A DNA stretch of 64,000 nt from a virus. Lineage: Duplodnaviria; Heunggongvirae; Uroviricota; Caudoviricetes. Below the pieces are notes generated by a model. The model did no database searches and was not told the origin of the DNA. It saw only the letters and a list, made by a program, of their open reading frames with translations. Position 1 is the first letter of the stretch; every line of letters starts with the position of its first letter. Positions 18,011 through 51,880 of this stretch are shown here, in pieces. The DNA lies in IMG/VR virus record IMGVR_UViG_3300047323_000428, positions 21,208 through 85,207 of that record. One strand, written 5' to 3'. Made by a program: the position numbers and the translations under genes.

Positions 18011-18253
18011 CTACCAGCTCCCATACTCTCCATACGCCTCCCGTGCGGGATCGTATAGGTCTTCCTCCGTCACTCCCGAGAACGTCGCGTTCATCATCCA
18101 TTCCAGATCCACGTGGTCGAACTCCGAGAGCCTGAATCTCCTACAAAGCGTCTCGTCCAGCACCATCACCTCTCTGCCTGTCTTGGTGTCGTGGGCGGTG
18201 TAGTAGCGGCTGCCGTCCTTTGTGTGCCCGCTGTCGTCGAGCTTGAGCTCCAT
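18011..18253 (-). CDS. Small protein (80 aa), paralog-array member with a C-terminal YGEYGSW
   Basis: The ATG overlaps the upstream stop (TGGTAGATGG junction). The C-terminal tail is ...EAYGEYGSW. Confidence 0.55.
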   Translation of the reverse strand: MELKLDDSGHTKDGSRYYTAHDTKTGREVMVLDETLCRRFRLSEFDHVDLEWMMNATFSGVTEEDLYDPAREAYGEYGSW

Positions 18254-18556
18254 CTACCATACCTCTCCATACCCCTGTGCTCGATCCCCTCTCCCCTTGA
18301 GCACCGTCGTCTTCACCTTCTTCCCGATGTTGTTGAACTGGAACTGTAGGTCGTAGATGTTGAGCTCCATGAAGCCGGGGAACTGCATTCCGACGATGGA
18401 TTCGCCTGCGTCGAGTGCGTCACGAACTGCCGCGTAGACCGTGAGTTGGTTTTCGTAGACCGAGCCGGTGCCTATGTCGCCGGTGCTGTCGCTCACTACG
18501 GTGACAGGGTAACGGCCGGCTGCGCTTTTCTTGTCTGTGATCTTGATGGTTGCCAT
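18254..18556 (-). CDS. Small protein (100 aa), paralog-array member with a C-terminal GYGEVW
   Basis: The ATG overlaps the upstream stop (TGGTAATGG). The C-terminus is ...RAQGYGEVW. Confidence 0.55.
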   Translation of the reverse strand: MATIKITDKKSAAGRYPVTVVSDSTGDIGTGSVYENQLTVYAAVRDALDAGESIVGMQFPGFMELNIYDLQFQFNNIGKKVKTTVLKGRGDRAQGYGEVW

Positions 18557-18798
18557 TACCAGACCTCTCCATACCCGGTTACTTCGTCCTTCTCGGTGTA
18601 GGGCGTGTCGTCCGGGTCGGTCAGGGCAAACCTAAGCCATTTGGTGTCGAAGCTGCCGAGCTTCTGGCCTACCTGGATTGGTGCTGGGTATTTGCTCTGG
18701 AGCAGGGTCGTCGGCATGGTGTAGTCCTCGAACGTCTTGGAGATGTGAATCTCGGTCCAGGTGTCGTTGTGTGCCAGGACGCTCACGTCGATTAGCAT
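18556..18798 (-). CDS. Small protein (80 aa), paralog-array member with a C-terminal GYGEVW
   Basis: The C-terminus is ...VTGYGEVW. It is the first gene after the 18.8-19.2 kb non-coding region. Confidence 0.55.
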   Translation of the reverse strand: MLIDVSVLAHNDTWTEIHISKTFEDYTMPTTLLQSKYPAPIQVGQKLGSFDTKWLRFALTDPDDTPYTEKDEVTGYGEVW

Positions 18799-19146
18799 AG
18801 GCCTTCTCTCTGCGGTTTCATTGCTTGATTGTCTCGTCTGCGGTGTGGGGTTGCTGCGGGAATCGTCGATTGGCTCTGAGCGCTTTAGAGACGTTTTGAG
18901 CGATCGGGGCGCGCGCTGCTGTCTGCGTGCGTCTTGAGCTTGGTGGCGCGCTTGTAGCGCGTTTTGACGCGTCCCTGAAGCGGTTGTGTCGCTCGGTTCG
19001 TCTGCGCTCGGTGCGCTTAGTCGGGTGTCAGAGTTGGCTTATACTTCTGTCGCAGATACGGCCAACTATAAGAGTGGAAATTCCCTTATAGATCAATGGC
19101 TTAGGAGTGATGGCCAAGGATCTCGGCCTAGGGCCGGTAACTCGAC

Positions 19147-19174
19147 AAGAAAAGGGGCTCCGAAGAGCCCTTTT
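19147..19174 (-). terminator. Rho-independent terminator after mazF (GGGGCTC-cgaa-GAGCCC flanked by an A-run and a T-run; bidirectional)
   Basis: Stem-loop at 19154-19170, with AAGAAAA upstream and TTTT downstream. Confidence 0.75.
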
Positions 19175-19177
19175 GCC

Positions 19178-19516
19178 TCACAGTTGGAGAAATGCGCGGA
19201 TCGCATATTTGGCGGCCGCGAGCTCGTCCTCTGTCGCCTGCTCGCCCTTGAAATCCACCTTTCGCTCGGTGTAACTCCAGGTGCTTATCTGATCGACCTG
19301 GGCCACACCTGGGCGAGCCAGGCTGTCGATCGGGATTTCCGTCTCCCACCCTCTCACGGTGGAGGTGATGGGCAGCCCAGTGAAGCGGCTGGTGATCTGA
19401 TTTACAACAAAGCTGGAGATCACCAACACCGCACGATAGCCGTCCTGCTCGTTACCTTTGGACGGGCCGATGTGCAGTCTCACGATATCGCCCGCTTCCG
19501 GAATGCCGTTCTTCAT
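19178..19516 (-). CDS. mazF: MazF/PemK-family endoribonuclease toxin
   Basis: PEAGDIVRL...GNEQDGYRAVLVISS...LPITS profile typical of Kid/PemK/MazF. Lies 3 nt downstream of the antitoxin. Confidence 0.8.
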   Translation of the reverse strand: MKNGIPEAGDIVRLHIGPSKGNEQDGYRAVLVISSFVVNQITSRFTGLPITSTVRGWETEIPIDSLARPGVAQVDQISTWSYTERKVDFKGEQATEDELAAAKYAIRAFLQL

Positions 19517-19519
19517 GTG

Positions 19520-19807
19520 TCACCAATTGTCGTTTCGGTCAGGATCGTCGGGGCCGCCCGTTTCGTTGCCGACGGGATCGCCCCAGTCGATTGTTTCGTG
19601 CGGAACGAGCTTGCCCTCCTCATGCTGCTGAATCAGGCGCTCAAGCGAGAATCGCCTGATCGCGGTGTGCGGCCGCACCTGTAGGCGCCCGTCTTCGACC
19701 ACCACATCCACTTCTTGGCCCTCTTGCAGAGCCACCTCGTCGGCCAAGCTGGCCGGAATACGCACTGCGAGGCTGTTGCCCCAGCGCTTTACTGTCTGAA
19801 TGGCCAT
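19520..19807 (-). CDS. mazE: MazE/AbrB-type (SpoVT/AbrB domain) antitoxin
   Basis: VKRWGNSLAVRIPASLADEVALQEGQEVDVVVEDGRLQVRP is a SpoVT/AbrB swapped-hairpin domain. Sits upstream of mazF. Confidence 0.8.
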   Translation of the reverse strand: MAIQTVKRWGNSLAVRIPASLADEVALQEGQEVDVVVEDGRLQVRPHTAIRRFSLERLIQQHEEGKLVPHETIDWGDPVGNETGGPDDPDRNDNW

Positions 19808-19853
19808 TTCCGCACTCCATTGCGTTGCTGCGTTGAAACACTACTCCGTGAGG

Positions 19854-19919
19854 CGTATAAACACGTTGCTACGTTTCTATCGTAGCGCTCGACTCTTGGA
19901 GTGTCAACGCGTTTATACG
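19854..19919. promoter_or_regulatory. Candidate mazEF operator: a 15-bp inverted repeat CGTATAAACACGTTG / CAACGCGTTTATACG flanking an inner palindrome GCTACGtttctatCGTAGC
   Basis: The inverted-repeat arms lie at 19854-19868 and 19905-19919, with the inner palindrome at 19868-19886, immediately upstream of mazE. Confidence 0.5.
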
Positions 19920-19922
19920 TTC

Positions 19923-20153
19923 CTACCAGGTGCCCATGTCCGCGTAGGCCGGCTCGGGTCTCAGGATGGGCACCTGGTAGTCCGACAACAGGCTATAGGC
20001 CACGTTGTCGACGAACTGGAAGCTCTCGCCGGGCAACAACTGCATCTGGGCGTAGATGCGCGCGGTTTGCATGTTGGGCGTGCGGCAGGTGTTCTCCAAC
20101 CACGCCCGGTAGCCGCCCTTCATGCTTCGGGCGATTTCGTCGCATTCGGTCAT
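19923..20153 (-). CDS. Hypothetical protein (76 aa; C-terminus ...ADMGTW)
   Basis: ORF coupled (ATGA) with the next gene. Confidence 0.45.
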   Translation of the reverse strand: MTECDEIARSMKGGYRAWLENTCRTPNMQTARIYAQMQLLPGESFQFVDNVAYSLLSDYQVPILRPEPAYADMGTW

Positions 20154-20515
20154 CGCGGCATCTCCGGCATTGGGCCGATCCGATGCACGACGCTCGTTGG
20201 CAGCTCGGCCATCGTGGTCGGCGTCTTCTTGGGGCGGCCGCGCTTCTTGGCTGGCTCTGCGGGAGTCTCCACCTGCGGCATCGCAATACTTGCGGCCACC
20301 CGCCTTTCGAGGCCGAGCGCCGTGAAATGCGCCTTCGCCTCGTCCTTGTCGTTCGGGAACAGGGTATAGAGCGTGTTCGGGTCCGGCAGCAAGGCGACGT
20401 CGAGCACCAGGGTCATCGAGCCGTTCTCATTGCACCAAAGTGCGCCGATCTTGCCCGAGCGGTGCTCCGTCACCTTGTTGAGCGCCTTTAGGATGAAGTC
20501 AGGGCTGCGGCTCAT
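20150..20515 (-). CDS. Hypothetical protein with an AT-hook-like KKRGRPKK segment (121 aa)
   Basis: ATG at 20513-20515 (M57 of the listed ORF). Confidence 0.4.
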   Translation of the reverse strand: MSRSPDFILKALNKVTEHRSGKIGALWCNENGSMTLVLDVALLPDPNTLYTLFPNDKDEAKAHFTALGLERRVAASIAMPQVETPAEPAKKRGRPKKTPTTMAELPTSVVHRIGPMPEMPR

Positions 20516-20870: not shown

Positions 20871-21222
20871 CCTTCTTCTCCCGTGCTTGCATCATGGCGT
20901 CGGCGAACTTGTAGGCAAGGCAGGAGGTGTGATCGGCATAGGCCGAGAGGTCGTCGCGTCCGGCCAACAATCCCTCGAGCGCGGCCATTGCGAACTTGTC
21001 GCGCAGCATTTGGCGCGAGTTTTCCCTGTCACGCGCGAGGCGCACCCGGTCGCGCACCACTTCCACCGCCTCCGGCATGGAAAGACCGCCCGCGACCAAG
21101 ACCTCGCGCAGTCGTTCGTTGGTGATTGGCTTTGCCACTTTCTTTCTCCTATAAGAGCCGTTGTTCTCAAGGTTGGCGCCTCCGCGCTTTCCCCCGATTA
21201 CGCGCCCGTCCGATTCAGGCAA
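20851..21222 (-). CDS. Hypothetical protein (123 aa)
   Basis: ORF overlapping the neighbouring gene by 20 nt. Confidence 0.4.
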   Translation of the reverse strand: MPESDGRVIGGKRGGANLENNGSYRRKKVAKPITNERLREVLVAGGLSMPEAVEVVRDRVRLARDRENSRQMLRDKFAMAALEGLLAGRDDLSAYADHTSCLAYKFADAMMQAREKKDDAGSH

Positions 21223-21360
21223 CTCCGACGATTAGGAGCATGGACAACCGCCCATCACAGCGGTCTGCCTTTATTGAGCGCGCCAACCTTGAGAACCCAC
21301 CTATTGGTAGGTCAGCTTTGGCAAGAAATTGCGGGGTTGGCGCAACTTCTTGCAGGGTGT

Positions 21361-21789: not shown

Positions 21790-21894
21790 AGTGTGTTGCT
21801 CCTTGTCTTGTGCGCTTCGTTGTGCGCGTTGTTTCGATGAATGAATTGTCGCAACCGGTGCGCGGGGTTTGTGCGCCGCCGGTGCGGTTCCCGG

Positions 21895-22719: not shown

Positions 22720-22789
22720 TTGACCGTCTCTCGGTTCGTTTCGACACAGAAATTGTCGCGTAACGATGCAGGAATGTATGCGGCTATCG

Positions 22790-22807
22790 TAATCAGTTTT
22801 GACTGTT
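22790..22807 (-). promoter_or_regulatory. PDM copy (TAATCAGTTTTGACTGTT)
   Basis: Lies 70 nt upstream of the 22719 start in a 340-bp non-coding gap. Confidence 0.75.
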
Positions 22808-23061: not shown

Positions 23062-23439
23062 CTACCAAGCGGCCCCTGGCGTGACTGGCTTATCCGAGCG
23101 CGAGGCAGGCAGTGCGGGCTTGATGCCCATCGCCTTCACGGTAGCCCGCATCTCCTCGTCCGATCGCAGCAGGCTCGGGGCGACGCGCCAAGTCTTGGGC
23201 AGGCGCTTGCCGCTCACGTCCACCTCCGTGCAGTTGATGCTCTTGGTGTTGATCTTGTCGATCACCACGTTCACGAGGTGGCCGTATTTCGACACGAACA
23301 TCGCCCGCTGGCCGACACGGAACTTCGAGCCCGCCATCACCTGCTTTTGCGTCTGGCGTTGGCGCAAGATGCCGACGATCGCGTTGTTGAGCTCCATCAG
23401 CGTTTCGGTCGAGAGGACGTTGAGCTTGGCGTGATCCAT
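23062..23439 (-). CDS. Hypothetical protein (125 aa; C-terminus ...TPGAAW)
   Basis: ATG at 23437-23439 (M32 of the listed ORF). Confidence 0.45.
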   Translation of the reverse strand: MDHAKLNVLSTETLMELNNAIVGILRQRQTQKQVMAGSKFRVGQRAMFVSKYGHLVNVVIDKINTKSINCTEVDVSGKRLPKTWRVAPSLLRSDEEMRATVKAMGIKPALPASRSDKPVTPGAAW

Positions 23440-24948: not shown

Positions 24949-25130
24949 TCACAGGGCTTGTAGAGGCCGTTGATGGCGTTGTCGATCGCCTCGCGCCAGT
25001 CTTTGCCGTAGGCCACGCATCGACCGACTTCGGGCACGTGAAACGTGACCCAGTGCCGGTTTCGGTCGCGGTCGAATTCGGGGAAGCTGTGGAGCACGAA
25101 GTCCAGGCGCGGGGTGTCGTAGAGATTCAT
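24945..25130 (-). CDS. HicB-like (UPF0150) antitoxin-fold small protein
   Basis: HVPEVGRCVAYGKDWREAIDNAINGL resembles the HicB/UPF0150 core. The ATG at 25128-25130 overlaps the upstream stop. Confidence 0.35.
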   Translation of the reverse strand: MNLYDTPRLDFVLHSFPEFDRDRNRHWVTFHVPEVGRCVAYGKDWREAIDNAINGLYKPCD

Positions 25131-25591
25131 CACCACGCCCCGACGTCGTCGTCCACGTCAGTCGTGGGCTTATTCGGATCGGGCGGCTTGGGCGGCTCTA
25201 CCGGCGCGAGAGTGTTGCCTACCTCGTGCAGCACCTCCTCGCCCGTCTCCAGATCCACCTCCAGCTCGCTCTCGGTCCACTTGGCGATGAACGCGGTGTA
25301 GAAGTCGAGGGCATCCTTCTCGTTGGAGAAGGTCTTGCCGTCATCGACCGGGTCCGTGCGCAGCCGGCCATCGCTCGCGTAGTTGCCGACGGTCAAGATG
25401 AAAAGTGGCCACGTGTCCGAAAAGCTGCTGTCGGCGTTGGGCACGCGACCATTCCACTCGAGGATCACCCGGACCTTGCCGTTGTCGAACTGCTTGAGCG
25501 TCGTGTAGGACTCGTCCGCCTGCTTTTCCTTCCAGGCCGCGAGGCTGATCTTCTCGCCGTCGCGGTCGTAAAAACTGATCTTGGGCATCAC
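25130..25591 (-). CDS. Hypothetical protein (153 aa; C-terminus ...DDDVGAW)
   Basis: ORF coupled to its neighbours. Confidence 0.5.
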   Translation of the reverse strand: MMPKISFYDRDGEKISLAAWKEKQADESYTTLKQFDNGKVRVILEWNGRVPNADSSFSDTWPLFILTVGNYASDGRLRTDPVDDGKTFSNEKDALDFYTAFIAKWTESELEVDLETGEEVLHEVGNTLAPVEPPKPPDPNKPTTDVDDDVGAW

Positions 25592-26626: not shown

Positions 26627-26840
26627 CGACGATCTCCTTCATCAAGCGCACCGCCTCATCGAACGACGGCGCATCGGTTTTGTGGGGGCCGAGCACGACT
26701 TCGAACGTGCGGCCCTTGCAGGCGTAGCGGATTTGGCGCTCTTCCACCATGTCGGCGAACCAGCGCCAGAGGTCGGCGTCGGCCTTGTTGGCGTTCGCGC
26801 GGGCGTTGAGGCGAATGTTGTCGAAGTGGGCGGCGGTCAC
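26604..26840 (-). CDS. Hypothetical protein (about 78 aa)
   Basis: GTG at 26838-26840 overlapping the upstream stop (GTGA). The Arg-rich N-terminus of the listed ORF is rejected. Confidence 0.4.
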   Translation of the reverse strand: MTAAHFDNIRLNARANANKADADLWRWFADMVEERQIRYACKGRTFEVVLGPHKTDAPSFDEAVRLMKEIVDVERLAA

Positions 26841-27103
26841 CAGATCACCTCCGCGGTTTCGACGGCATCGGCCTCGACGTAGACCTTGCGGTCGGTGGCT
26901 TGAAAGTGTTCGGACGGACCGGCTGACGGGCTCATGCAAGTCACCTTCTCCCAGACCTGAAGAATCACGACCAGGCCGTCGACTTTGACCACCGCCCCGT
27001 GAATCTCCTGACCGGAGCGCGTGACGATGTGAATCGTGTAGGGATTGCCCTCGTCCCGTGAGCCGTGCTCGGCGTCCGCAATGGCGTAACGAAGCGCGCT
27101 CAT
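26837..27103 (-). CDS. Hypothetical protein (88 aa; C-terminus ...AEVIW)
   Basis: ATG at 27101-27103 (M9 of the listed ORF), coupled (ATGA) to the upstream gene. Confidence 0.45.
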   Translation of the reverse strand: MSALRYAIADAEHGSRDEGNPYTIHIVTRSGQEIHGAVVKVDGLVVILQVWEKVTCMSPSAGPSEHFQATDRKVYVEADAVETAEVIW

Positions 27104-33558: not shown

Positions 33559-33972
33559 TCAGGGGTTTTGTTGGGAATCGTCGCTCCCGCTCATGCTTGC
33601 CAGATACTTGCCGTGATCGAACGCCTTCTTCATGGCGCGCAACTGGGCGAGCGTGGGCTTGTCCTTCGAGTCGTGCCAGGAGATGGCCGACAGCCACGAA
33701 CGCAGGCGAGCCTCATCGCGCGAATCCTTCACCTTCTGCGTGATCGGGTCGATACAACCAGAGGCGGCGCCGATAAAGTAGCCCGTCTCCCGGTTGGCGC
33801 GATGTTCGTTTCCCTTCGCATCTTTCAGGACGAACTGCGTGCGCGTCAGGCGATCGATCGTGAACAGCACATAACCGTGGTGGCGCGTTCGGTGCGCGAC
33901 TTCCTGACCGGGTCGAAGCGACTTCAGCCACTCGGCGCGTTCTTCTCTTTCATCCATCACCAGCTCCCCCAT
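33559..33972 (-). CDS. Hypothetical protein (137 aa)
   Basis: The ATG lies 16 nt inside the end of the upstream gene. Confidence 0.5.
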   Translation of the reverse strand: MGELVMDEREERAEWLKSLRPGQEVAHRTRHHGYVLFTIDRLTRTQFVLKDAKGNEHRANRETGYFIGAASGCIDPITQKVKDSRDEARLRSWLSAISWHDSKDKPTLAQLRAMKKAFDHGKYLASMSGSDDSQQNP

Positions 33973-34607
33973 TGTTCGTGTGCGACAGTTGCGCCGCTTC
34001 GCTTGGCGTATTCGTCGGCCGATAGCGACCGTGCCTGTGCCTTCAGGTTCTCACGCAACTGCCGATCACCTTCCGGCTCGTTGAGCACCATGTTCGCGGG
34101 CGTGAAGCAACCAACGAAGCCAGGGTAATAGTCGTCGGTGTTGCACGTGCCGAACTCGATCACAACCTTGCCCGTCTCAACGTCGACCAGCTCCACGACG
34201 TCATGATTTTTATTGGCGCACTTCCGGCCAATCACCTTCACGGGCGCGAAGGTGTTCTTGATCGTGGTGTCGCGCGTCACCCAAACGGCGCTCAACGAGG
34301 ACCGGTAGCCGTCGTTGGGATCTTCCATCGCCGTGTAGCACTGGTTGTTCAGGACGAAGGAGAACGCGGTTGCGTGCTCGGCGCCCCAGCCCTTGCTGCA
34401 AGCGACGTTCTCCGAGCCGACGCCGGTGAGCACAAAGCTCTTGCCGATGAAGAAGTCGAAGTCCACTTCCTTGACGTTGCGGCCCGAGAACTCGCCGGCG
34501 GGCTTGCCATCGTCTTCAGGCAGCTCCTCCGGGAGTTTGACCTCGCTGTTATAGCCGGCAAGCTCCATAAACTCGTCGGCAAGCTCGTCCAGGTTCAGCT
34601 TGGGCAC
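33957..34607 (-). CDS. Hypothetical protein (216 aa; C-terminus ...HEQWGSW)
   Basis: ATG ORF. Confidence 0.5.
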   Translation of the reverse strand: MPKLNLDELADEFMELAGYNSEVKLPEELPEDDGKPAGEFSGRNVKEVDFDFFIGKSFVLTGVGSENVACSKGWGAEHATAFSFVLNNQCYTAMEDPNDGYRSSLSAVWVTRDTTIKNTFAPVKVIGRKCANKNHDVVELVDVETGKVVIEFGTCNTDDYYPGFVGCFTPANMVLNEPEGDRQLRENLKAQARSLSADEYAKRSGATVAHEQWGSW

Positions 34608-35818: not shown

Positions 35819-36241
35819 TCAAAACGGAATCAGATCGTCTTCGTCCTTCACGAACCGACTGTTGGCCGCATAGACAACCTTGTATGCACGCTTGGCAGCG
35901 CCACACGCCCGGAAGAATCTGCTTGCGCGCGAGTGGACTGCCACGCGCAGCGCATACCACCGCTGCCGGAACCACTGCACGCTGCCAAAGCACAACAATT
36001 CGTTGTTCACCCACTCGATCGCCGCTTCGTAGTCGTAGCGGTTGATATCGGATGGGAGCCGCCCTTGCCACACAATCTCGACCGGGCGGCTTTCCTTCGT
36101 GTGGTGGCAAGTGAGCACGCCATCCTTGAGCGTGAAGCTCCACTCGCCGTTGATGACCATGCCCTCGATTGCGCCATCTACCGGCGCGCTGCACTCGCAG
36201 AACAGATCCACCTTCCGGTCGCGACCAATGGCAATCAGCAT
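35819..36241 (-). CDS. Hypothetical protein (140 aa)
   Basis: ATG ORF overlapping the upstream gene by 7 nt. Confidence 0.5.
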   Translation of the reverse strand: MLIAIGRDRKVDLFCECSAPVDGAIEGMVINGEWSFTLKDGVLTCHHTKESRPVEIVWQGRLPSDINRYDYEAAIEWVNNELLCFGSVQWFRQRWYALRVAVHSRASRFFRACGAAKRAYKVVYAANSRFVKDEDDLIPF

Positions 36242-39865: not shown

Positions 39866-40858
39866 TTAGTCCCAGTCACCGAGCGTGCCGACGGCATAGT
39901 CCCCGACCTTTGCCTCGAAGAAGTTCGACTCTTCGCCTTCGCTGAACTTCTTGAACCACGGCACCGGGTTCTTTGCACCCGGATAGAGGTCGGACAGGCC
40001 GATTTCCCGCGCGTGTTCGTTCGCCGTGAATTCGAGAAAGCCACGCACGATCGGCTCGGTAATGCCCAGCACGCCCTTGCTGACGATGTAGCCGCCCCAC
40101 TTCGCCTCCAGATCCACCGCGCCGCGCAGGATCGCTTCCGCATCGCTCCAGAACTTGGCGTCGTAAAGCTCCGGGCGCTCCTGAATGTTCGTCTGGTGCA
40201 TCAGCTTGAACAGCTTCAGGTGGTTTCGCTCGTCGCGGTGAATCAATTTCACGCTGTCAGCGCTGCCAGTCATCTTTCCGTTACGTGCGAGCGCGTAGAA
40301 CGTCAGAAAAGCCGAGTAAAAATACAGGCCTTCTAAAGCGATGTTGGCGACGATCGAGCGTGCGAACTGCGCCGGCGTCTTGTCGCCTTCGAGCAAGCGC
40401 ACCTGTTCGAGAATGTGATCGTTCTTGGCCGCCAGCATCCCATCCTGCTCGAAGCGCATGTAGACCGCCATCGGATCGGCCGACACCGTCTCGACCATTT
40501 CGCTGTAGGCGTCCACGTGCAGCGCCTCTTCATACATTTGGCGCTTGATGCACATTTCGACCTCGGGGCTCGTGATGCACGCCTCGACGTTCGACAGACT
40601 GTGGAGCTGGAAGCCATCGAGGTTCGAGGCGAAGGCAAGCGCGCTGTCATAGGCGAAGCGCTCACCTTCCGTCAGGCGGTTGCGATAGCACGGGCCGTCC
40701 TCGGTTAAATCGGTTTCGTGCAAATCCCAGTTCGCGGCCTTCATGGTCTTCCACATATCGCGCGCCCACTTGTGCTTGGCAGGCGAGATCGCCATCAGGT
40801 CCGATTTCGGGCCGAAGGCGAGACGGCGATCATTGATGATTTTGGCGTGGTTGCTCAT
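39866..40858 (-). CDS. nrdB: Ribonucleotide reductase small subunit NrdB (class I)
   Basis: Ferritin-like di-iron motifs (LEGLYFYSAFLTFY, ERNHLKLF). ATG at 40856-40858 (M107 of the listed ORF). Confidence 0.8.
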   Translation of the reverse strand: MSNHAKIINDRRLAFGPKSDLMAISPAKHKWARDMWKTMKAANWDLHETDLTEDGPCYRNRLTEGERFAYDSALAFASNLDGFQLHSLSNVEACITSPEVEMCIKRQMYEEALHVDAYSEMVETVSADPMAVYMRFEQDGMLAAKNDHILEQVRLLEGDKTPAQFARSIVANIALEGLYFYSAFLTFYALARNGKMTGSADSVKLIHRDERNHLKLFKLMHQTNIQERPELYDAKFWSDAEAILRGAVDLEAKWGGYIVSKGVLGITEPIVRGFLEFTANEHAREIGLSDLYPGAKNPVPWFKKFSEGEESNFFEAKVGDYAVGTLGDWD

Positions 40859-43541: not shown

Positions 43542-44045
43542 TCACCATGCGTCGTCTGTGGTCATCGGCACGTCACGGCTTGGCCCCATGACCGAGGCCG
43601 CGTAGGCCGCCGCGTCGACCTGGTGGTATCGCCCAAACTCATCGACGCGACCTTTGGCGCTCAGGTCGAGCATGTATTCCTTCTCGAAGTGGCTTTTCAG
43701 GTCTTTATGCACGCCGGCTCTTATGTCGTAGGGGTCCGAGAATCGCGCCTCGAAAGCGGTCGCCGTCAGCTCCTTTGCACAACGGTTCTCATTGGCATGG
43801 CCGCGGTCGCAGTAAAGGCTCAACTTCGCGCCGTTCAGGCCCGAAGGCGACGGAATGAACTCCTGTTCGGCCACCCGGTGGCTGCACCGAGCGCATTTAG
43901 CAGCAACGTTCTCGCTCAGTCGAAGGAAATTCTCCTGGCAGATTTGCTCGGACGTGCGACCGTTGGAGAAGTGAAGCTCCATTTCGGAAATGCGCAAGCT
44001 GATCGGCTTCTCTGCGAGGTTGGGTTTGGTGGCGACGGCGCCCAT
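43542..44045 (-). CDS. Hypothetical Cys-containing protein (167 aa; C-terminus ...TTDDAW)
   Basis: ATG at 44043-44045 with a GGAGAG ribosome-binding site (M7 of the listed ORF). Confidence 0.5.
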   Translation of the reverse strand: MGAVATKPNLAEKPISLRISEMELHFSNGRTSEQICQENFLRLSENVAAKCARCSHRVAEQEFIPSPSGLNGAKLSLYCDRGHANENRCAKELTATAFEARFSDPYDIRAGVHKDLKSHFEKEYMLDLSAKGRVDEFGRYHQVDAAAYAASVMGPSRDVPMTTDDAW

Positions 44046-44897: not shown

Positions 44898-45154
44898 TCC
44901 ATCGCCTTTTGAAGCGCTGCCACAGCAGCAGTGAACAATTCCGCCTGCCAACCGCGGCCTCGGTAAACGTCAACGCCCAACACCGTGCGGCGCGGACGCA
45001 TCACGCCGAGCACGAAGGAGCGCTCCTTTACATTCACCGTAACCGCGCCATGCGGACTTGTGCCAACAGCCGGCTTGTGGATCGTCACGCAATCCGTGTC
45101 GTAGCGTCGAGCCTCCCACCCTTCCGGCAGGTTGATTGGCAGTTCCATCACCAT
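44894..45154 (-). CDS. Hypothetical protein (86 aa)
   Basis: ATG at 45152-45154 (M65 of the listed ORF), overlapping the upstream gene by 7 nt. Confidence 0.4.
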   Translation of the reverse strand: MVMELPINLPEGWEARRYDTDCVTIHKPAVGTSPHGAVTVNVKERSFVLGVMRPRRTVLGVDVYRGRGWQAELFTAAVAALQKAME

Positions 45155-45579
45155 GATCCGAACTCCGCGTATTGGGTCATCTTCTCGGCGTTGGCCTCGA
45201 GCTCGTCCTGGCGCTTCGCCTGCGCGGCGAGCTCCTCCTTCGCCTCCATCACGTCGGCGAGAATTGTGCGCATGTAGACAGGGAAGCCCGCGCCGAACAC
45301 TTCGCGGCATTGCTTCTCCGGCACTTCGAGGAAGTGGAAGTCGCACGGGTCGCGCGGCTTGAACACGATGATCGTGCCGTGCTTCTTGCCCACATACGCG
45401 CGCACCGGCTCGAATTCCTCGCCACCGATGAAGGGCTTGATGCTGAATTGGTCGTTCGTCTTTGTGGTGAGCTTTTGCGGGGCGCTCACCAAAAATCCGC
45501 TAGGCGCCTCCTTGAACGCGTCCGCGTATTGTTCGACCAGCTTGGCGAGTTCGGTTTGCTCGCCGGTTGCTTCTGCCAT
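45148..45579 (-). CDS. Hypothetical protein (143 aa; C-terminus ...YAEFGSW)
   Basis: ATG at 45577-45579 with a strong GAGGAGG ribosome-binding site. The frame stays open a further 300 nt upstream, so an N-terminal extension (GTG at 45885) cannot be excluded. Confidence 0.5.
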   Translation of the reverse strand: MAEATGEQTELAKLVEQYADAFKEAPSGFLVSAPQKLTTKTNDQFSIKPFIGGEEFEPVRAYVGKKHGTIIVFKPRDPCDFHFLEVPEKQCREVFGAGFPVYMRTILADVMEAKEELAAQAKRQDELEANAEKMTQYAEFGSW

Positions 45580-45838
45580 ATCGACCTCCTCGTCGAGTTT
45601 TGCCTTCGGTCGGGGCCGAGGCTTGGTTCCGTTGCGATAGTGGAGCTCTTCCCGGTAGGCATCGGGCCCGCCGGGGAATGAGTCAGCCTCCCGACTGCTG
45701 AAGCCGGGAATGAGGGCGTCGGAGGCTAGAATCGCCCCCGCGCGCTTCGTGGAGACGGTGCGCTCCGAAGCGCGCGACCGTCCAAGAGGATCAGAGGGTT
45801 CGACCATGCTCAGTGACTTGCCAAAGAACGCGTCGCTG

Positions 45839-47791
45839 TTAAACGGAGCCACGTTCGGTTGCTCCTGAGACGGTCGTGACGCCACCGCTCTTTTCTGCCG
45901 TGATGACCGTGTCGACCCAGTCGGCGAGGCTGTTGTGGGAGATCACCAACACCGTGCCGCGCTCGCGTGCTTTCTTCTCCAGCACCGTCATCAGCCGCTC
46001 GAGGCCCGCCTCGTCGAGTGCGTGATCCACTTCGTCGGCGACATAGAGGTTGATCGGCTTCGTTGCGCGCGTCGCCACCATGTCCTGCAGCGCCATCGAC
46101 GCAGCAAGGCGTGCCTTGCGCTTCTCACCGCCCGACAGACCCGCGAACGACTTCGCACCCTTGTCGTTGGTGACTTCGATGTTGAACTTCTCCTTCAACT
46201 CGCCCTTCGCCGTCTTGGCGAGCGTGTTCCAGGTCGCGTGAATGTTGCCGTCGGCCAAGATGCCGAGATAGTCGCTCGTCTGGTCGTTGAGAATCGGCGT
46301 CACGGTGTCGAGAATGTGGGCGCGCACGCCGGCCGGTCCGTAGACCTTCGCCACCGTCTGCGCGATTTCGTTCTCGGTGACGGCCTTCTCCAGCGCCTTC
46401 TCAGCTTCTTCGAGCCGGCGCTTTATGTTTTCTTCCTTCACGCGCGCGGTGGCTTCGACCTTTTGCCAGGGGTTTTCAGCTTCCAGGTGCGCTTTCGCCG
46501 CATCCTTGATCGTGTTGATCTGCAAGCCGAGCGTCGTGCTATGCCGCGTGAGTGCGCGCACTTCGTTGAGGGTGTCGTTCAGATGCTTGTGCTCGCGCGC
46601 CACTTCGCTCACGTCAGTCATCGACGCTTCGAATTTCGTGGCGACGTCTTGCAGCGCTTTGAGTTCTTCCTGCGCGGTGCGAATGGCTTGTGCGATCGGC
46701 AGCAATCCCGCCTTCTGCTCGCTGATCGTTTTGACGCGCGCAGCCTTCGCAGCCTCCAAGTCGTGCTCGCAGTAGGTCTTGCCGCACTCACCGCACGGTT
46801 TGCCAATCTGCGATTCGATTTCGGCGAGCATCTTTTGCTGCGCTTCCAGCCCCTTCTTGCCACCGGCGAGCGAACCCATCGCGGTCGCAATCTCGCGCTC
46901 CTTCCTCGCCACCGCCGCCTTGTGAGCGTCGAGCGTCTTTTGTTCCGCCTTCTGCCCATCAAGCCGCGACTGACAACCTGCCACGCGCTTTTCGAGCGTG
47001 GCTTCGTCGGGCAGCTCGCCGCGCTTCTTGGTGTTTTCAACGATCTGGGCGTTGATCGGTGGGATCTTGGCAAGCTCGGCGCGCGCACGGTCCTTGCGCT
47101 GCGCTTCGAATAGCGCCTTTTGCTCCTCTGCAGCCTTCACTTCATCGCCCGCCACAGTGAGCGCGGCCACCTCACGGTCACGGTCGGCACGCGCAGCCTT
47201 CTCTGCAGCTTCGGCGGTGAGCGCACGCTTTCGCGCCTCCGCATAGGCTTCGGTCAGCACTTCGACGCCGGCCGCTTCCTCGATGAGCGTCTTGAGCGCC
47301 TTGTCGGTCATTCCAGGCAAATCTGGCATCTTCTCCTGGCCCGCATAGACGGCAGCGGCGAACACTTCTTTGGAGGCGCCGACGATCTTCTCGACCACCT
47401 TCTGCGTCTCCTTGTCGGTGCCCTTGCTCAGATCGACAGTCGGGCTGCCGGCGACAAGTTGCTTGACGATCAAGGCGTTCTTGATTTCCTTGCTCTTGCG
47501 ACCGCGCGAGATTTCGTAGGTGTCGTCACCGTCCTCGATCACAATGCTGACGTGGCAGTCCTTGCCGGCCGTGTCGTTGATAACGTCATCGCCCGAGACG
47601 CCACGCGCAGTTTCGCCGTAGAGCACCCAGAACAGCGCGTCGACGATGGACGATTTGCCCGCACCGTTGGACTTGGCTGACGGATCATCGAGGTTCGAGC
47701 CCTGAATGAGCAGCAGACCGCGGTTGTCCAGCTCCAGCTTGGCGGAGCCGATGGTCAGAAAGTTGCGTATGAAAAGCGATTTGACGTCCAT
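45839..47791 (-). CDS. SbcC/Rad50-like (gp46-like) recombination ATPase
   Basis: Walker A GAGKSS, a central coiled coil with a CxxC zinc hook (CGECGKTYC), ABC signature LSGGEKR and a D-loop ADEVD. Confidence 0.85.
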   Translation of the reverse strand: MDVKSLFIRNFLTIGSAKLELDNRGLLLIQGSNLDDPSAKSNGAGKSSIVDALFWVLYGETARGVSGDDVINDTAGKDCHVSIVIEDGDDTYEISRGRKSKEIKNALIVKQLVAGSPTVDLSKGTDKETQKVVEKIVGASKEVFAAAVYAGQEKMPDLPGMTDKALKTLIEEAAGVEVLTEAYAEARKRALTAEAAEKAARADRDREVAALTVAGDEVKAAEEQKALFEAQRKDRARAELAKIPPINAQIVENTKKRGELPDEATLEKRVAGCQSRLDGQKAEQKTLDAHKAAVARKEREIATAMGSLAGGKKGLEAQQKMLAEIESQIGKPCGECGKTYCEHDLEAAKAARVKTISEQKAGLLPIAQAIRTAQEELKALQDVATKFEASMTDVSEVAREHKHLNDTLNEVRALTRHSTTLGLQINTIKDAAKAHLEAENPWQKVEATARVKEENIKRRLEEAEKALEKAVTENEIAQTVAKVYGPAGVRAHILDTVTPILNDQTSDYLGILADGNIHATWNTLAKTAKGELKEKFNIEVTNDKGAKSFAGLSGGEKRKARLAASMALQDMVATRATKPINLYVADEVDHALDEAGLERLMTVLEKKARERGTVLVISHNSLADWVDTVITAEKSGGVTTVSGATERGSV

Positions 47792-48434: not shown

Positions 48435-49504
48435 GCTTCTACCGCGCGAACGGAATCGAGCACGTCTTGGCAGGCCTTTGCGACCGCCGCTTCGTGAGGG
48501 CTGCCGATGCTCTTCACATAGTCGAAAACCGAGCCATCGAGCGTCGTGCTTCGAATGGCCGAGCCTGCGGCGCGCGTCACCGCCGTCGCGCTCTTTTGCA
48601 CGTTCAGCACCACGCCGGCCGCGCCCTTCTCGACGAGGAATGCACGCAGCGCTTCGACTTCTTCCATCTTCGCGGTGTGAATGGTCGCGCGCACGTAGTT
48701 GCCATCGACGATCATCGGCACGTCATCGGGGTCGGTAGAAGCGTCGAGCTCCACGAACTCGGGCGCGTGCGACTTCATCCACGTAACCGCCTTCTCTTCG
48801 ACGATGAGGAAGCCCGACTTGGCGCCGACGTCGCTCCAGGTCTGCGGCGTGAGTGAGCCGATGCTGTAGACGCCTTTGCCCAGGTTCTTGTGAGCGTGGT
48901 AGTGGCCTGCAAAGACGCGACGGAAGCCGAGCGAGCCCAAATAGGCGGGGTCGAGTCCGTGATCCGGGATGCCGGGGATGACGCCATCGACCGGTGCGTG
49001 GATCATCAGGTCACAGGCGGCGCGGTCTGCCGGGTCGATGGACTCGATCTGCTTTTTCAGCCCTTCGATCGACGGATTCCAGGGGATCATGGCGACGTCA
49101 TCGCTCGCAGCGAGCCCGCCGAGATTGAAGCCGTTGACGACCTTGCAGCCGATGCCTTCGAGCGCGGTGATGGCGCTGCTGATGCGCGACGCCTCTTTGT
49201 GCTCTAAATCATGATTCCCTGCGAGAATCACAATTTGCACGCCCATGTCCAAGATGGACTTGTAGGTATCGATCGTCGGATTCAAAACGGACGGAGCAAT
49301 GGAACCCCGAACGTGAAACAAATCACCGGCGTGATACATGACGCTTCCGCCAGCTTTCTTGACCTCCTGAGCGCACCGGACAGTCTCATCCAGGATCATT
49401 TGCAAACGACTGTTCACGCCATTAGGCAGCGTTGTCGAAAACGCGTGCCACGAATGATTGTGCGTGTCAGAAATTACGCCATACGGTTTCATAACCACCC
49501 CCAT
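48431..49504 (-). CDS. SbcD/Mre11-like (gp47-like) nuclease
   Basis: Calcineurin-like phosphoesterase motifs DTHNH, GDLFH and GNHD. Confidence 0.85.
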   Translation of the reverse strand: MGVVMKPYGVISDTHNHSWHAFSTTLPNGVNSRLQMILDETVRCAQEVKKAGGSVMYHAGDLFHVRGSIAPSVLNPTIDTYKSILDMGVQIVILAGNHDLEHKEASRISSAITALEGIGCKVVNGFNLGGLAASDDVAMIPWNPSIEGLKKQIESIDPADRAACDLMIHAPVDGVIPGIPDHGLDPAYLGSLGFRRVFAGHYHAHKNLGKGVYSIGSLTPQTWSDVGAKSGFLIVEEKAVTWMKSHAPEFVELDASTDPDDVPMIVDGNYVRATIHTAKMEEVEALRAFLVEKGAAGVVLNVQKSATAVTRAAGSAIRSTTLDGSVFDYVKSIGSPHEAAVAKACQDVLDSVRAVEA

Positions 49505-50040
49505 GCTCTGCCGCTCTTGATTGCGTTAATCAAGCCGCGCGTTACTCCATAAATTGCAGCGATGGCATCTGACGTCTCGCCCTTCGCTACCCTCTCTCGA
49601 ATCTCTAGCACCTGTGCCGGTGTCAGCTTCACTGCACGATTGCGCTCACCTCGATTGCTCCTGCCGTGCGCGATCTTGTCCTCCTCGTTCCCGCTGCGCG
49701 TGTCCCATCGCAAGTTGCCGAGAACGTTGTTAGTCGGATTCCCGTCGCGGTGGCAGCCGTGCCACTCAAGGCAGTCGCCAGGACGTGGCCCCACAAACGC
49801 TTCCAGCACCAGCGTGTGAACCTGATAGGTCTTACTTCTTCCCTCTTTGGCAAGAGAGACGGTCAAGTGACCGGACTCTGCCGGGCCCGGCGCCAAGATT
49901 CGCTCTGGCTGCTCGCGGTAACGGTCGCCAACCGGATGACGAATCAGCAGCATGCGGCGCAGGCTCTTGACTCGACCGAGATTGGAGACTTGATAAAGCC
50001 CCTCATATCCCGCTATGTCTTTCCACTTTTCGCCACTCAT
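49489..50040 (-). CDS. HNH homing endonuclease (NUMOD4 plus HNH)
   Basis: IAGYEGLYQVSNLGRVKS (NUMOD4) and an HNH core ...WHGCHRDGNPTNN. It stands alone between the SleB-like gene and sbcD. Confidence 0.8.
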   Translation of the reverse strand: MSGEKWKDIAGYEGLYQVSNLGRVKSLRRMLLIRHPVGDRYREQPERILAPGPAESGHLTVSLAKEGRSKTYQVHTLVLEAFVGPRPGDCLEWHGCHRDGNPTNNVLGNLRWDTRSGNEEDKIAHGRSNRGERNRAVKLTPAQVLEIRERVAKGETSDAIAAIYGVTRGLINAIKSGRAWGWL

Positions 50041-50050
50041 TTTTGACTGT
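50034..50050 (-). promoter_or_regulatory. Degenerate PDM-like word (ACTCATTTTTGACTGTC) overlapping the HNH start codon
   Basis: The intergenic gap is 14 nt. The motif appears to be interrupted or abutted by the HNH gene. Confidence 0.4.
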
Positions 50051-50054
50051 CAGT

Positions 50055-50456
50055 TCACTTATAGAAGACGTGGTTTCCGGCCGCGTATACGCGCTCCATC
50101 CCACGATCCCAAACCGGATGCACTTCGCGCGTGTGGTAATACGTCGCTCCGTGCGTGAAATCATGGGCTTTTTTGCTCAACGTCACATACGCCACCGCTC
50201 GCGCTGTGCGCCACGCATTCTCGTCACGAGGCAGCGCGCGATTGGTAATCTTCCAACGCCCTTTTTGCCGAATCACAAGCCTGTTGGCCCACGAAAACTG
50301 CTTGGGCTTAAACACGACCTCGCACACTTTTGCGGGATCGCCCTCTGCTCGATTCATCGTTGTCATTGCGACGGCTAACTGCCCCTGAATGGGTTCCCCG
50401 CGTGCTTCGTGGAAGATATTCAGCGCCAGGCATAGAAAAGCACTCGCCAAGATCAT
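50055..50456 (-). CDS. SleB/CwlJ-family cell-wall hydrolase
   Basis: Signal-anchor-like N-terminus plus a FHEARGE motif and a conserved C-terminal region. Confidence 0.65.
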   Translation of the reverse strand: MILASAFLCLALNIFHEARGEPIQGQLAVAMTTMNRAEGDPAKVCEVVFKPKQFSWANRLVIRQKGRWKITNRALPRDENAWRTARAVAYVTLSKKAHDFTHGATYYHTREVHPVWDRGMERVYAAGNHVFYK

Positions 50457-50498
50457 TCAACTCCTCGCTACTCGACTTAAAATTCATTATACACCGAG

Positions 50499-50516
50499 TA
50501 GTCAGGGTTGACTGTT
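50499..50516 (-). promoter_or_regulatory. PDM copy (TAGTCAGGGTTGACTGTT)
   Basis: 42 nt upstream of the SleB-like start. On the minus strand a TATAAT lies 10 nt further downstream (50486-50491). Confidence 0.75.
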
Positions 50517-50880
50517 ATCGCATCGACATTGCCGACGCGATCCCCTTTGCTGTCTTGCCCGGATGATGACGGAACCGGATCAGCGGCAGCCCTCTTTGCC
50601 GCGTCGTGCCCCAATGGGCGAACGAGTGCGGATCGTCAAAGAAGTCTTCCACGAACGTCAGGTAGAGCTTGCCGGCCTTGCCCCTCGTCTTGATGCCGAT
50701 CACCTTAATGCCGCGCGCACGGCACTCCTCGAGCGTCGCCACGTCAATGCACCAGGCGTTGCGCTTTTGGTAGACCTCGCGGCTCTTCCTTGAAGCGATG
50801 TAGCAGGCGCGGCCGCTGTCGAGATAGTGCCACCACCCGTATTTCTTGCCATGCACGGTGTGTATGTAGCGGTTTGCCAT
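50515..50880 (-). CDS. Hypothetical basic protein (121 aa)
   Basis: ATG ORF. Confidence 0.45.
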   Translation of the reverse strand: MANRYIHTVHGKKYGWWHYLDSGRACYIASRKSREVYQKRNAWCIDVATLEECRARGIKVIGIKTRGKAGKLYLTFVEDFFDDPHSFAHWGTTRQRGLPLIRFRHHPGKTAKGIASAMSMR

Positions 50881-51141
50881 TTAGGCCCACTCCGACTCGC
50901 CGTAGTGCTCTGCGCGCTCCAGCGCCTCAAGTTCGCGGTTAAGCTCCTCCATGCGCCGCTGCACCTTCATCGCGCGACGATGGGCCTTGCCGGTCTTACC
51001 AAGCGCCGGTTGCTTCTGCTCGCCGCTCATGATGACTAGCGGCGCTACCTTGCCCTTCGGCACGTAGTCAGGCACGACGTAGCGCAGCGCTTCCCTCTTA
51101 TTCCACCGCTCCTGCTCTCGATACATCAGAAACCTCCCCAA
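50881..51141 (-). CDS. Hypothetical protein (86 aa)
   Basis: ORF overlapping the upstream gene by 16 nt. Confidence 0.4.
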   Translation of the reverse strand: MGRFLMYREQERWNKREALRYVVPDYVPKGKVAPLVIMSGEQKQPALGKTGKAHRRAMKVQRRMEELNRELEALERAEHYGESEWA

Positions 51142-51506
51142 CCCATTTCGTCATAAACCTTCGCCTGCTCGGCCGCCTCGCGTTCAGCCTTGCGCTTCTC
51201 TTCCCGCTTCTCTGCCGTGTATTCGTCAGGCAGGAGGAACGTGTAATTCACGCACTCGGGGTTGTCGATGATTTGATCCAGCACCGCGGTGAGGAGCTCG
51301 TCGCCGAAGCTGACCTTCATTTCTGCATTCGGGTGCGCATCGACCACAAACTTGTCGACCAGCCAGCACATATAGGTAGGGCGCTCGGCAAGCAACACTC
51401 TTGGCGTCTTGCCCGCATATTTGCCGAACGGCAGCGGCGTGTCGAAATCGAGGCTCACGCGCCAGGTCTTGTTCTTGATGTTGACTTCGCTCACCACGAC
51501 CCCCAA
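51126..51506 (-). CDS. DUF3820-like protein (126 aa, TTG start)
   Basis: FGKYAGKTPRVLLAERPTYMCWL matches the DUF3820 FGK(Y/F)KG...Y..WL motif. Confidence 0.5.
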   Translation of the reverse strand: MGVVVSEVNIKNKTWRVSLDFDTPLPFGKYAGKTPRVLLAERPTYMCWLVDKFVVDAHPNAEMKVSFGDELLTAVLDQIIDNPECVNYTFLLPDEYTAEKREEKRKAEREAAEQAKVYDEMGWGGF

Positions 51507-51880
51507 TCAGCAGAAGGCGTGTAGGCGACGACCGGCTCGGGCATCGGCGTGTGGCCGTTGAGAGGCGTGCGGCCGCTGAGGATATCCGCGATGGCTTGCT
51601 CATCCTCGTCGAGCGCGGCGTCGGTGGTGACTTTCACCAGGAACGTCGGCGGATTCTTCGTCCAGTGCCGGAACCGCGCCGCGTCTTTCTTGTGCAGAGC
51701 GATCCACATGTCCAGCTCGTCGTTGACGTCCTGATCGAAGAACGCCTGGCTGCTGTCCTTTGCAACCTTGTCCCGTAGCCAGCAGCAATACTGCGGGTCA
51801 ATCTTCAGGACGTCGGCGATCTTCCTGCCCTTGAACTTGCCAAAATTGAGCGCGTCGCTTTTGCCGTTTCCAGTGCTCAC
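51491..51880 (-). CDS. DUF3820-like protein, tandem paralog (129 aa; C-terminus ...SADWGSW)
   Basis: FGKFKGRKIADVLKIDPQYCCWL. Confidence 0.5.
   Translation of the reverse strand: MSTGNGKSDALNFGKFKGRKIADVLKIDPQYCCWLRDKVAKDSSQAFFDQDVNDELDMWIALHKKDAARFRHWTKNPPTFLVKVTTDAALDEDEQAIADILSGRTPLNGHTPMPEPVVAYTPSADWGSW

Follow-up and report, generated by a model that had tools for sequence, protein, structure and literature searches.

A short aromatic C-terminal motif shared by unrelated non-structural proteins of large DnaE-encoding siphophages and phage-plasmids

The stretch of DNA analysed here (the window) covers 64,000 nucleotides of a caudoviricete virus (IMG/VR record IMGVR_UViG_3300047323_000428, positions 21,208 to 85,207). 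It has a GC content of 61%, is transcribed nearly completely from the minus strand, and is the non-structural half, together with the packaging genes, of a large uncultivated phage of ~110 kb, its source being a 110.8-kb metagenome contig. A codon-usage caller trained on the long open reading frames (ORFs) of the window gave 99 genes, and about a tenth of these, a share also seen in cultured relatives, encode otherwise unrelated proteins with a common C-terminal tail, the core motif of which is [F/Y/W/M]-G-x-[W/F]-COOH (Table 1). Besides these tail carriers, the terminase and the portal, the genes identified include a UvsW-like helicase, a MazE/MazF pair, RtcB, a class I ribonucleotide reductase (RNR), an SbcCD-like nuclease, RecA, a 5′-3′ exonuclease, a sigma-70-family protein, CobS/CobT-like AAA+/VWA proteins, a gp32-like single-stranded DNA-binding protein (SSB) and a DnaE polymerase.

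Table 1. Tail carriers and other features of the window (coordinates are those of the window)
Feature	Coordinates	Strand	C-terminus	Remarks
Portal	1219-2856			
Terminase	2894-4162			
80-aa ORFan	18011-18253	−	...EAYGEYGSW	TAG stop; next called gene 830 nt off
100-aa ORFan	18254-18556	−	...QGYGEVW	variant Y-G-x-x-W
80-aa ORFan	18556-18798	−	...TGYGEVW	
MazF	19178-19516	−		PF02452 PemK_toxin, E=1.2e-13
MazE-type antitoxin	19520-19807	−	...DRNDNW	PF04014 MazE_antitoxin, E=3.8e-13
76-aa ORFan	19923-20153	−	...PAYADMGTW	TAG stop, without adjacent downstream gene
125-aa ORFan	23062-23439	−	...KPVTPGAAW	
152-aa ORFan	25130-25588	−	...TDVDDDVGAW	long Pro-rich linker
88-aa ORFan	26837-27103	−	...ETAEVIW	weakest motif match
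216-aa ORFan	33957-34607	−	...HEQWGSW	
140-aa protein	35819-36241	−	...DEDDLIPF	no Pfam match
RNR small subunit	39866-40858	−	...DYAVGTLGDWD	PF00268 Ribonuc_red_sm, E=2e-56; relaxed-motif match
167-aa ORFan	43542-44045	−	...SRDVPMTTDDAW	second tail class
Core carrier, 234 aa	45148-45852	−	...TQYAEFGSW	directly after sbcC
123-aa paralog of 51491-51880	51126-51497	−	...YDEMGWGGF	blastp E=1.6e-4; relaxed-motif match
129-aa protein	51491-51880	−	...PSADWGSW	downstream of recA; N-terminal ExoX-like_C, PF20600, E=8e-10
gp32-like SSB	54436-55275			
DnaE polymerase	56566-59931	−		C-terminal family-4 uracil-DNA glycosylase (UDG)-like domain

An excess of tryptophan (Trp) at the protein ends had been reported in a preliminary description of the window, and it was fully borne out: of the 99 called genes, 12 have a terminal Trp, where its share of all residues (1.39%) predicts 1.4 (binomial P=1.6e-8). 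The 12 ORFs and tails listed in that description were all recovered at their positions on the minus strand, and they are the same 12 Trp-enders found by the caller. One boundary had to be moved, as the true start of the gene first placed at 45148-45579 is at 45852 (234 aa, in agreement with the Joint Genome Institute (JGI) call), the earlier version being its C-terminal 143 aa. Among uncalled wrong-frame ORFs of at least 40 codons, TGG precedes the stop in 15 of 837 (1.8%), which is the background level, so that a TGG-stop hexamer bias is not the cause. The control set, 80 RtcB-anchored loci of which about 76 come from unrelated phages of similar GC content and ORFan density, was processed with the same caller and showed no excess either, with 12 of 1,660 genes (0.7%) ending in Trp. 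A scan of the last residues in relatives, which had been proposed as a check, found motif tails in 44 of the 799 genes of the DnaE-anchored loci of the window's family (5.5 expected, P=3e-25) and in 6 of the 1,660 genes of the unrelated loci (15 expected).

The 12 Trp-enders share no detectable similarity beyond their last residues in an all-against-all blastp, and 49 carriers clustered with their tails removed fell into 15 homology groups, by which paralogy of the carriers is rejected. Their stop codons are TGA (seven genes), TAG (four) and TAA (one), and four of the 12 have no gene within 100 nt downstream. The serine codons do differ between the genes (TCA, AGC, AGC and TCG), as had been noted, and the conservation at the protein level that this was taken to indicate is upheld by orthologs of 30% identity that keep the tail, by the use of three stop codons, by the presence of tails with or without a downstream gene, and by a relative with 53% GC. 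A junction sequence described as shared by two of the genes, TGGGGG(A/T)(G/C)(C/G)TGGTGA, consists merely of the codons for W-G-S-W and the stop and adds nothing. Overall, the observation is confirmed and is stronger than first described: a genuine, modular protein-level motif lies at the C-terminus of many unrelated proteins. The Trp-enders also favour TAG, a rare stop: four of the five TAG stops of the window follow Trp (18011, 18254, 19923 and 23062; Fisher P=6e-4), and in the family loci TAG ends 16 of 60 Trp-enders vs. 77 of 937 other genes (P=5e-5).

A search at the DNA level found no close cultured relative of the window. Its DnaE protein is 37-45% identical, with clear synteny of the loci, to that of RHEph10 (host Rhizobium etli) and its relatives, BUCTxx99 (Stenotrophomonas maltophilia), nickie (Pseudomonas syringae) and the SSU5-type phage-plasmids (Salmonella/Klebsiella), and the window's own clade comprises at least 53 IMG/VR contigs with 60-99% DnaE identity and genomes of about 105-114 kb. 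A relaxed pattern, [FYWMIVL]-[GA]-x-[WF] with its final residue at one of the last three positions of the protein, was counted against its rate at internal positions. It gave 8 tails in the window (0.7 expected, P=6e-7), 7 in RHEph10 (1.3 expected, P=3e-4), 10 in nickie (1.0 expected, P=8e-8), 13 in BUCTxx99 (1.2 expected, P=5e-10) and 3 in SSU5 (0.95 expected, not significant).

The cultured relatives write the motif in different dialects. RHEph10 has Y-A-x-N-P-x-[FY]-G-[RM]-F on seven proteins and not a single protein ending in Trp; BUCTxx99 has [NT]-Y-G-x-W on eleven proteins, nine of them products of consecutive small genes and none paralogous; nickie has [RK]-P-x-x-Φ-G-x-[WF]-[AGS], which is longer by one residue, on ten proteins (one of them Mu Gam-like); and SSU5 has G/T-W-A-T-W on two proteins, encoded after the primase gene and after sbcC. 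The strongest Trp excess belongs to BUCTxx99, a phage with 53% GC, mostly TAA stops and no excess of C-terminal alanine, and the phenomenon is therefore independent of base composition. All seven RHEph10 and all ten nickie carriers lie outside the structural modules. These comparisons establish that the motif is common, with lineage dialects, to a large group of ~100-120-kb DnaE-encoding siphophages and phage-plasmids, and that it is selected at the protein level, modular (gained, lost, and present on unrelated folds) and confined to non-structural modules.

Two other groups of protein ends were seen in the same genomes. In nickie (L058; 23500-24264 and 24846-25862), NrdB ends ...YEDKGLEW and two small proteins encoded between nrdA and nrdB end ...LLIPEW and ...LDVKW; all three are Trp-ending, lie off the main motif, and may be RNR-alpha-binding tails. 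Proteins ending in alanine make up 29 of 99 in the window, 11 of them with a terminal AA (1.3 expected), and 45 of 157 in RHEph10, 23 of them with AA. Such AA termini number 74 in the family loci (11 expected), are less enriched in the unrelated controls (64 vs. 20 expected), and show no excess in the 53%-GC BUCTxx99; GC-rich spacers ahead of coupled start codons, or a signal of the ssrA type, may lie behind this strong excess.

The preliminary description had spoken of one shared tail, which holds for a core of six window proteins with [F/Y/W/M/V]-G-[S/T/A]-W (18011, 19923, 25130, 33957, 45148 and 51491). The remaining Trp-enders are heterogeneous, with two ending in GYGEVW, three of an acidic/small-W type (43542 TTDDAW, 23062 PGAAW and 26837 AEVIW), and the MazE (19520). 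When 41 tails were aligned on the last aromatic residue, 39 had Gly at −2 and 33 had Y, F or W at −3, whereby −4 was N/D/G/T, −5 was E/P/A, and −1 was freely variable (G, R, A, S, T, D). The motif is often preceded by P-[E/A]-[N/D] and/or Y-A, as in ...EKMTQYAEFGSW, ...TPSADWGSW, ...IPENYGGW, ...YAGNPNFGRF and ...RPENFGSWA. In the 20 residues before the core, Pro is enriched 2.3-fold and Glu 1.65-fold, with Leu, Ile, Phe and Trp depleted, which indicates a flexible linker. Acidic residues are common only at −4 and −5 and chiefly in the window tails, those of BUCTxx99, nickie and RHEph10 being mostly N/P-rich and not acidic. Invariant features are the aromatic at −3, Gly at −2 and the terminal W/F.

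The most conserved carrier is the product of the gene following sbcC (45148-45852), a position that it occupies in every context examined. It overlaps the sbcC stop by 14 nt in the window and by 11 nt in a distant relative. Its family consists of 463 clusters at 50% identity, and among 155 sampled diverse members, 149 have [FYW][GA]x[WF] at or within a few residues of the C-terminus. W/F is exactly C-terminal in 136 of the 155 (FGSW in 59, FGSF in 20, YGSW in 12, and others), while 12 members carry one extra small residue after the aromatic and a thirteenth carries three. An alignment of seven sequences has only 23 invariant columns, among them Y228, F231, G232 and W234, and 13 complete orthologs of about 30% identity end in YKDLGFGSW, YEGFGSW, KYNEYGSW and similar. 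A hidden Markov model (HMM) of the family built without the tail columns matches RHEph10 gp068, which ends NPNFGRF and is encoded at the same position (E=1.7e-5), so the Trp and Phe versions of the tail sit on homologous proteins. The same HMM did not detect nickie gp091 and SSU5_076, which are positional analogues only. A tblastn search with the core carrier against cultured phages gave no match, because the family is too divergent, and an AlphaFold2 model (predicted local distance difference test score, 85) found no significant fold match and no informative relative. In a bacterial genome with a decayed prophage of the group (L152; GCA_030155485.1, JALYFC010000024.1), recognisable by its integrase, CobT and truncated CobS, the SbcC N-terminus is fused in frame to a core-carrier-like domain with the tail ...APEFASW still present. 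This sole domain fusion (P0141) was dismissed as a functional clue, since in a decayed prophage it looks like a deletion.

Orthologs show the same persistence of the tail for other window carriers. Those of the 51491 protein in 13 loci keep it as EWGAW, DWGTW, EWGAF or SWGSF, so that W and F interchange within one ortholog group, and its paralog at 51126 has a Phe-terminated variant of the shared tail. In L146, the closest relative of the window among the loci compared, the orthologs of 25130 (78% identity, ...DTDDEVGAW), 19923 (53%, ...PTYADAGSW), 18254 (52%, ...QGYGEVW, one of three such genes in L146), 18556 (72%), 23062 (67%, ...TPVTPGGGW) and 26837 (84%, same tail) all retain it; a second ortholog of 25130, in L095 (46% identity), ends ...DDVLGGVGAW. 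A distant ortholog of 23062 in L102 (34% identity) is without the tail, from which it follows that the tail is gained and lost as a module. The adjacent 18254 and 18556 proteins resemble each other in the tail only (blastp matches their last 10 residues). The 33957 protein has no Pfam match, one marginal PHROG hit (E=0.01, no function assigned) and no full-length ortholog among those recovered. The 43542 protein stands for a second tail class, in which a P/T-rich linker is followed by acidic/small residues and then W. No homolog of it was found by blastp at 1e-5, and genes slightly downstream of the core-carrier ortholog in relatives end ...PRSPDTPTTESDTW, ...QRSPDQPTTASDAW and ...PRSPDLPTGITDAW, their equivalence to 43542-44045 being suggested by position and tail only.

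Two of the window proteins concerned are best set apart. The 19520 protein, with an N-terminal SpoVT/AbrB-like domain and an adjacent downstream toxin gene, is a MazE/AbrB-type antitoxin, and its terminal Trp is probably a feature of that family outside the shared-tail system. Escherichia coli MazE ends ...KEVW. The complete MazE/MazF pair belongs to a block of small genes of early type, and among the several tail-bearing ORFans that flank it are the two with ...GYGEVW, an end resembling that of the E. coli antitoxin. As judged from its sequence, the end of the RNR small subunit (39866-40858) would be the expected R1-binding tail of a class I RNR beta, with the conserved Tyr of such tails, and was treated as separate.

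With modest confidence, we favour the reading of the tail as a C-terminal docking peptide by which accessory proteins, in a set that changes rapidly, are tethered to a single receptor, probably of replication/recombination; this function is what we infer from the distribution and build of the motif. Being present on unrelated, fast-evolving non-structural proteins, the motif would bring each of them to a common receptor, phage-encoded or host, most probably part of the replication and recombination machinery. A hydrophobic pocket would take up the aromatic side chains of positions −3 and 0, with the Gly turn holding them in place, whereby the body of the carrier would supply its own activity and the tail the common address. 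A docking architecture is suggested by the build itself, namely a folded domain, a flexible linker and a motif of 4-7 residues with two aromatics held by Gly. The translational coupling of the most conserved carrier to sbcC points to a receptor in replication/recombination, as do the DNA-metabolic domains of other carriers and their position beside recA, sbcCD or primase and ligase genes; carriers beside the primase gene recur in three cultured lineages. The domains are ExoX-like_C next to recA, WGR after the primase gene in RHEph10 and a Mu Gam-like one in nickie (the latter two by annotation), to which a BRCT-like sequence read by eye in a BUCTxx99 carrier may be added, and all carriers with recognisable domains appear to be DNA-metabolism adaptors. 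A further step would be a proteome-wide, plug-and-play address, in which a dedicated receptor reads aromatic-G-x-W/F-COOH and a new accessory gene is wired into the phage's factory for replication and recombination by acquiring 4-7 C-terminal residues. It would explain both the acquisition of the tail by unrelated ORFans and the dialect of each lineage, and we put it forward tentatively, at somewhat less than an even chance.

Several results weigh against docking to a single receptor. The preliminary description had offered a docking peptide, a packaging signal or a protease degron, and the flexible Pro/Glu-rich linker fits the first of these without deciding between them. No receptor was identified by phylogenetic profiling, by the clamp motif, through NrdB, in the UDG-like domain or among peptide-binding modules of the window, where no PDZ, TPR or SH3-type module is evident. 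Profiling had yielded the sigma factor (61198-61845), RtcB, the SPFH protein and 50515-50880 as candidates, and all were dropped: the approach collapsed because nickie, at first seemingly tail-free, carries the motif plus one residue, so that all five lineages have the tail. Two partners suggested earlier, the SSB and the 55400-56470 protein, are conserved in all lineages, without any link to the tails. Many carriers are very small ORFans with no connection to DNA metabolism (e.g., those of the nine consecutive BUCTxx99 genes), and for these, a general signal of protein fate, be it for degradation or localisation, would be at least as good an explanation. Two or three sub-classes, at the least, can be told apart among the window's tails, and their receptors may differ. 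Finally, about 8% of the core-carrier family and all nickie tails extend one residue past the aromatic, and a strict alpha-carboxylate anchor of the SSB-tail or PDZ kind is thus not required.

Two receptor candidates were rejected on their own features. RNR alpha, considered for the likeness of the NrdB tail, was discarded as the NrdB tails of RHEph10, SSU5 and BUCTxx99 ignore the local dialect. The UDG-like domain of DnaE, considered as a repurposed peptide receptor, aligns with family-4 UDGs, keeps the iron-sulfur (Fe-S) cysteines and the acidic motif-A residue, and looks like a genuine family-4 glycosylase. It replaces the usual oligonucleotide-binding (OB) and tau-binding domains of the polymerase, and its motif B has Asn where UDG families typically have His.

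Full-text literature searches on phage C-terminal Trp or docking motifs found no earlier description of the motif. Its logic resembles that of three known systems, the defining sequence features of which are as sets absent from the tails, except for the terminal aromatic of the T7 type. The SSB (gp2.5) and helicase-primase (gp4) of T7 have acidic C-terminal tails ending in Phe, with which they dock on T7 DNA polymerase. A likeness to them had been proposed, and it is a loose one: in both cases, a short C-terminal peptide is common to unrelated phage proteins in a replication context, with a key terminal aromatic and Trp and Phe interchangeable. The terminal aromatic is found in all window, RHEph10 and BUCTxx99 tails, with nickie as the exception. 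However, T7 has two clients with a strongly acidic tail, whereas here there are 8-13 clients per genome, and the acidity is confined to the window tails; NPNFGRF (RHEph10), NYGxW (BUCTxx99) and RPxxFGxWA (nickie) lack an acidic run in the last ~15-25 residues. The bacterial SSB C-terminal tip, ...DDDIPF, binds pockets of many partners and likewise combines a disordered linker with a short hydrophobic/aromatic tip as a general address. It differs in motif, being D-D-D-I-P-F on an OB-fold SSB vs. aromatic-G-x-W/F on non-SSB proteins, and in polarity, since SSB offers one tail to many partners while here many tails would presumably go to one. An SSB-type tip does occur on the 35819-36241 protein, which is not part of the tail set and may, from its end, be a second SSB-like protein besides the gp32-like one.

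Sliding clamps also recruit many DNA-metabolism clients to one hub through short, often extreme C-terminal motifs, such as the bacterial QL[S/D]LF and, for the T4/RB69 clamp gp45, the C-termini of gp43, gp33 and gp55. The tails have no Gln and a variable fourth position, and the DnaE's own motif differs from them; with N/D/G/T at −4 and a variable −1, they do not follow the beta-clamp consensus (QL[S/D]LF or QLxLxL), which was rejected, and no phage clamp was identified. Antitoxins such as MazE and CcdA (...NRDW) bind their cognate toxins with a C-terminal tail that is likewise disordered and has a final Trp, and one window Trp-ender is a true MazE, but such binding is one-to-one and leaves aromatic-G-x-W/F on >15 unrelated families unexplained. 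The nearest conceptual parallel is McdB, the invariant C-terminal Trp of which is reported to mediate carboxysome binding (PMC11321042). Association with a large assembly is thereby decided by a Trp that closes a disordered region. McdB is a single bacterial family of ParA-type positioning, with no Gly-x-aromatic core, phage context or multi-client set, and no microcompartment genes were seen in the window annotations, so the likeness is an analogy only.

The tail could instead be a degron, i.e., a C-terminal aromatic tag read by host Lon, ClpXP or ClpAP or by a phage HslV-like peptidase with host HslU, giving early and accessory proteins a short, timed life. The Lon degrons beta20 and sul20 depend on aromatic residues, most carriers are small ORFans, non-structural and located in gene blocks of early type, their tail is portable and sits on a disordered linker, and one Trp-ending window protein belongs to the MazE antitoxins, which are inherently prone to proteolysis. 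Moreover, RHEph10 and nickie encode an HslV-family peptidase, although none is annotated in BUCTxx99 or SSU5 and none is present in the window. The core carrier coupled to sbcC keeps its tail in 96% of 155 diverged relatives, as would be expected of a stoichiometric partner more than of a protein destined for degradation, and we know of no C-terminal degron class that aromatic-G-x-W/F would match. The tails end in W or F and not in the non-polar ...L-A-A-COOH of the ssrA-like ClpX C-motif 1, and the AA-ending proteins of the family are a different set from the carriers. While unlikely as a general explanation, a degron is a serious rival, especially for the many tiny ORFans. A mimic of a host motif, with which takeover effectors would hijack or block a host hub (beta clamp, SSB-tail pocket or RNA polymerase), is decidedly unlikely. 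The motif is common to phages of alpha- and gamma-proteobacterial hosts, as expected of a conserved host target, [N/D]-Φ-G-x-[F/W] loosely recalls the clamp motif Q-L-[S/D/G]-L-F in four of five positions, and the phage DnaE of all five lineages has a canonical-looking internal clamp motif, RDQxEL[LM], by which the host clamp is probably used. Against this, the clamp ligands listed in a review have a hydrophobic fourth residue, Leu or Met, and the review stresses the contribution of Gln to affinity (PMC11139829), while the corresponding position of the tails is freely variable and Gln is absent. The tails of three lineages, unlike the SSB tip, are not acidic, and the dialects, including the extra terminal residue of nickie, would follow more readily from a receptor of the phage that co-evolves.

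As a localisation or partition signal, the tail would send its clients to a compartment, a condensate, a membrane scaffold (e.g., a phage SPFH/prohibitin) or the virion. Aromatic-Gly stickers are typical client signals, the McdB Trp (PMC11321042) offers a precedent, and the window, RHEph10 and BUCTxx99 each have an SPFH/Band_7 gene. Such a gene is, however, unannotated in nickie and SSU5, and blastp found none in nickie, both of which carry the tails. The location of the carriers in non-structural modules argues against virion packaging, sequence inspection noticed neither signal peptides nor transmembrane segments in the window carriers, and a compartment in these siphophages is without support, which makes this very unlikely. 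An artefact, with tail codons imposed by a downstream ribosome-binding site (RBS) or start, stop context, high GC or mis-called ORFs, would be suggested by start codons within the tail codons at the junctions 45148, 25130 and 51491 (ATGGTGA or GTGGTGA) and 26837 (GTGA), and by a start within 5 nt of the stop in 55% of tail genes vs. 41% of others (P=0.065). Yet 45% of the tail genes have no adjacent downstream start, all three stops are used, Phe-terminated tails cannot give rise to start codons, the strongest Trp excess belongs to the 53%-GC, mostly TAA-using BUCTxx99, wrong-frame ORFs and unrelated high-GC phages processed with the same caller show no excess, and the JGI calls agree for the genes checked. 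A nucleotide cause, be it TGG-stop hexamer bias, RBS/start overlap or high GC, is rejected by these controls, and an artefact of any kind is extremely improbable.

Most genes of large phages are ORFans, and with the shared tail as a marker, 8-13 per genome can be assigned to a single functional set. Four cultured systems (nickie, BUCTxx99, RHEph10 and SSU5) make the tag-bearing ORFans experimentally approachable, and among the members of the group are the SSU5-type phage-plasmids of Enterobacteria as well as phages that have been considered for use in biocontrol. While much is known of short linear motifs in viruses of eukaryotes, such motifs are, to our knowledge, barely described in phages. 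Docking to a common receptor would, if true, provide a clear phage case of a motif gained and lost on unrelated proteins, with a dialect drifting between lineages. The plug-and-play version, in turn, would amount to a viral hub with many clients, in which both the motif and the receptor are new; its logic would be comparable to that of the clamp or SSB interactomes, with a polarity opposite to that of SSB. As a portable tag, the tail might also be of use in recruiting engineered proteins.

Apart from the tails, a Pfam scan of 40 window proteins found a Tad2-like domain (Thoeris anti-defence), P22 NinX, YebG, a phage ProQ-C-like domain, thioredoxin, ThyX and an HNH/NUMOD4 homing endonuclease, all listed for the batch as a whole and not by ORF. 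The genes at 14217-15887 (minus strand) have low coding scores and a GC content at third codon positions of 0.55-0.65 vs. about 0.8 elsewhere, which suggests that they were recently acquired or mis-called. Copies of RtcB 65-78% identical to that of the window are present in very different phage contigs, from 5 kb to 424 kb, and the gene is evidently highly mobile among phages.

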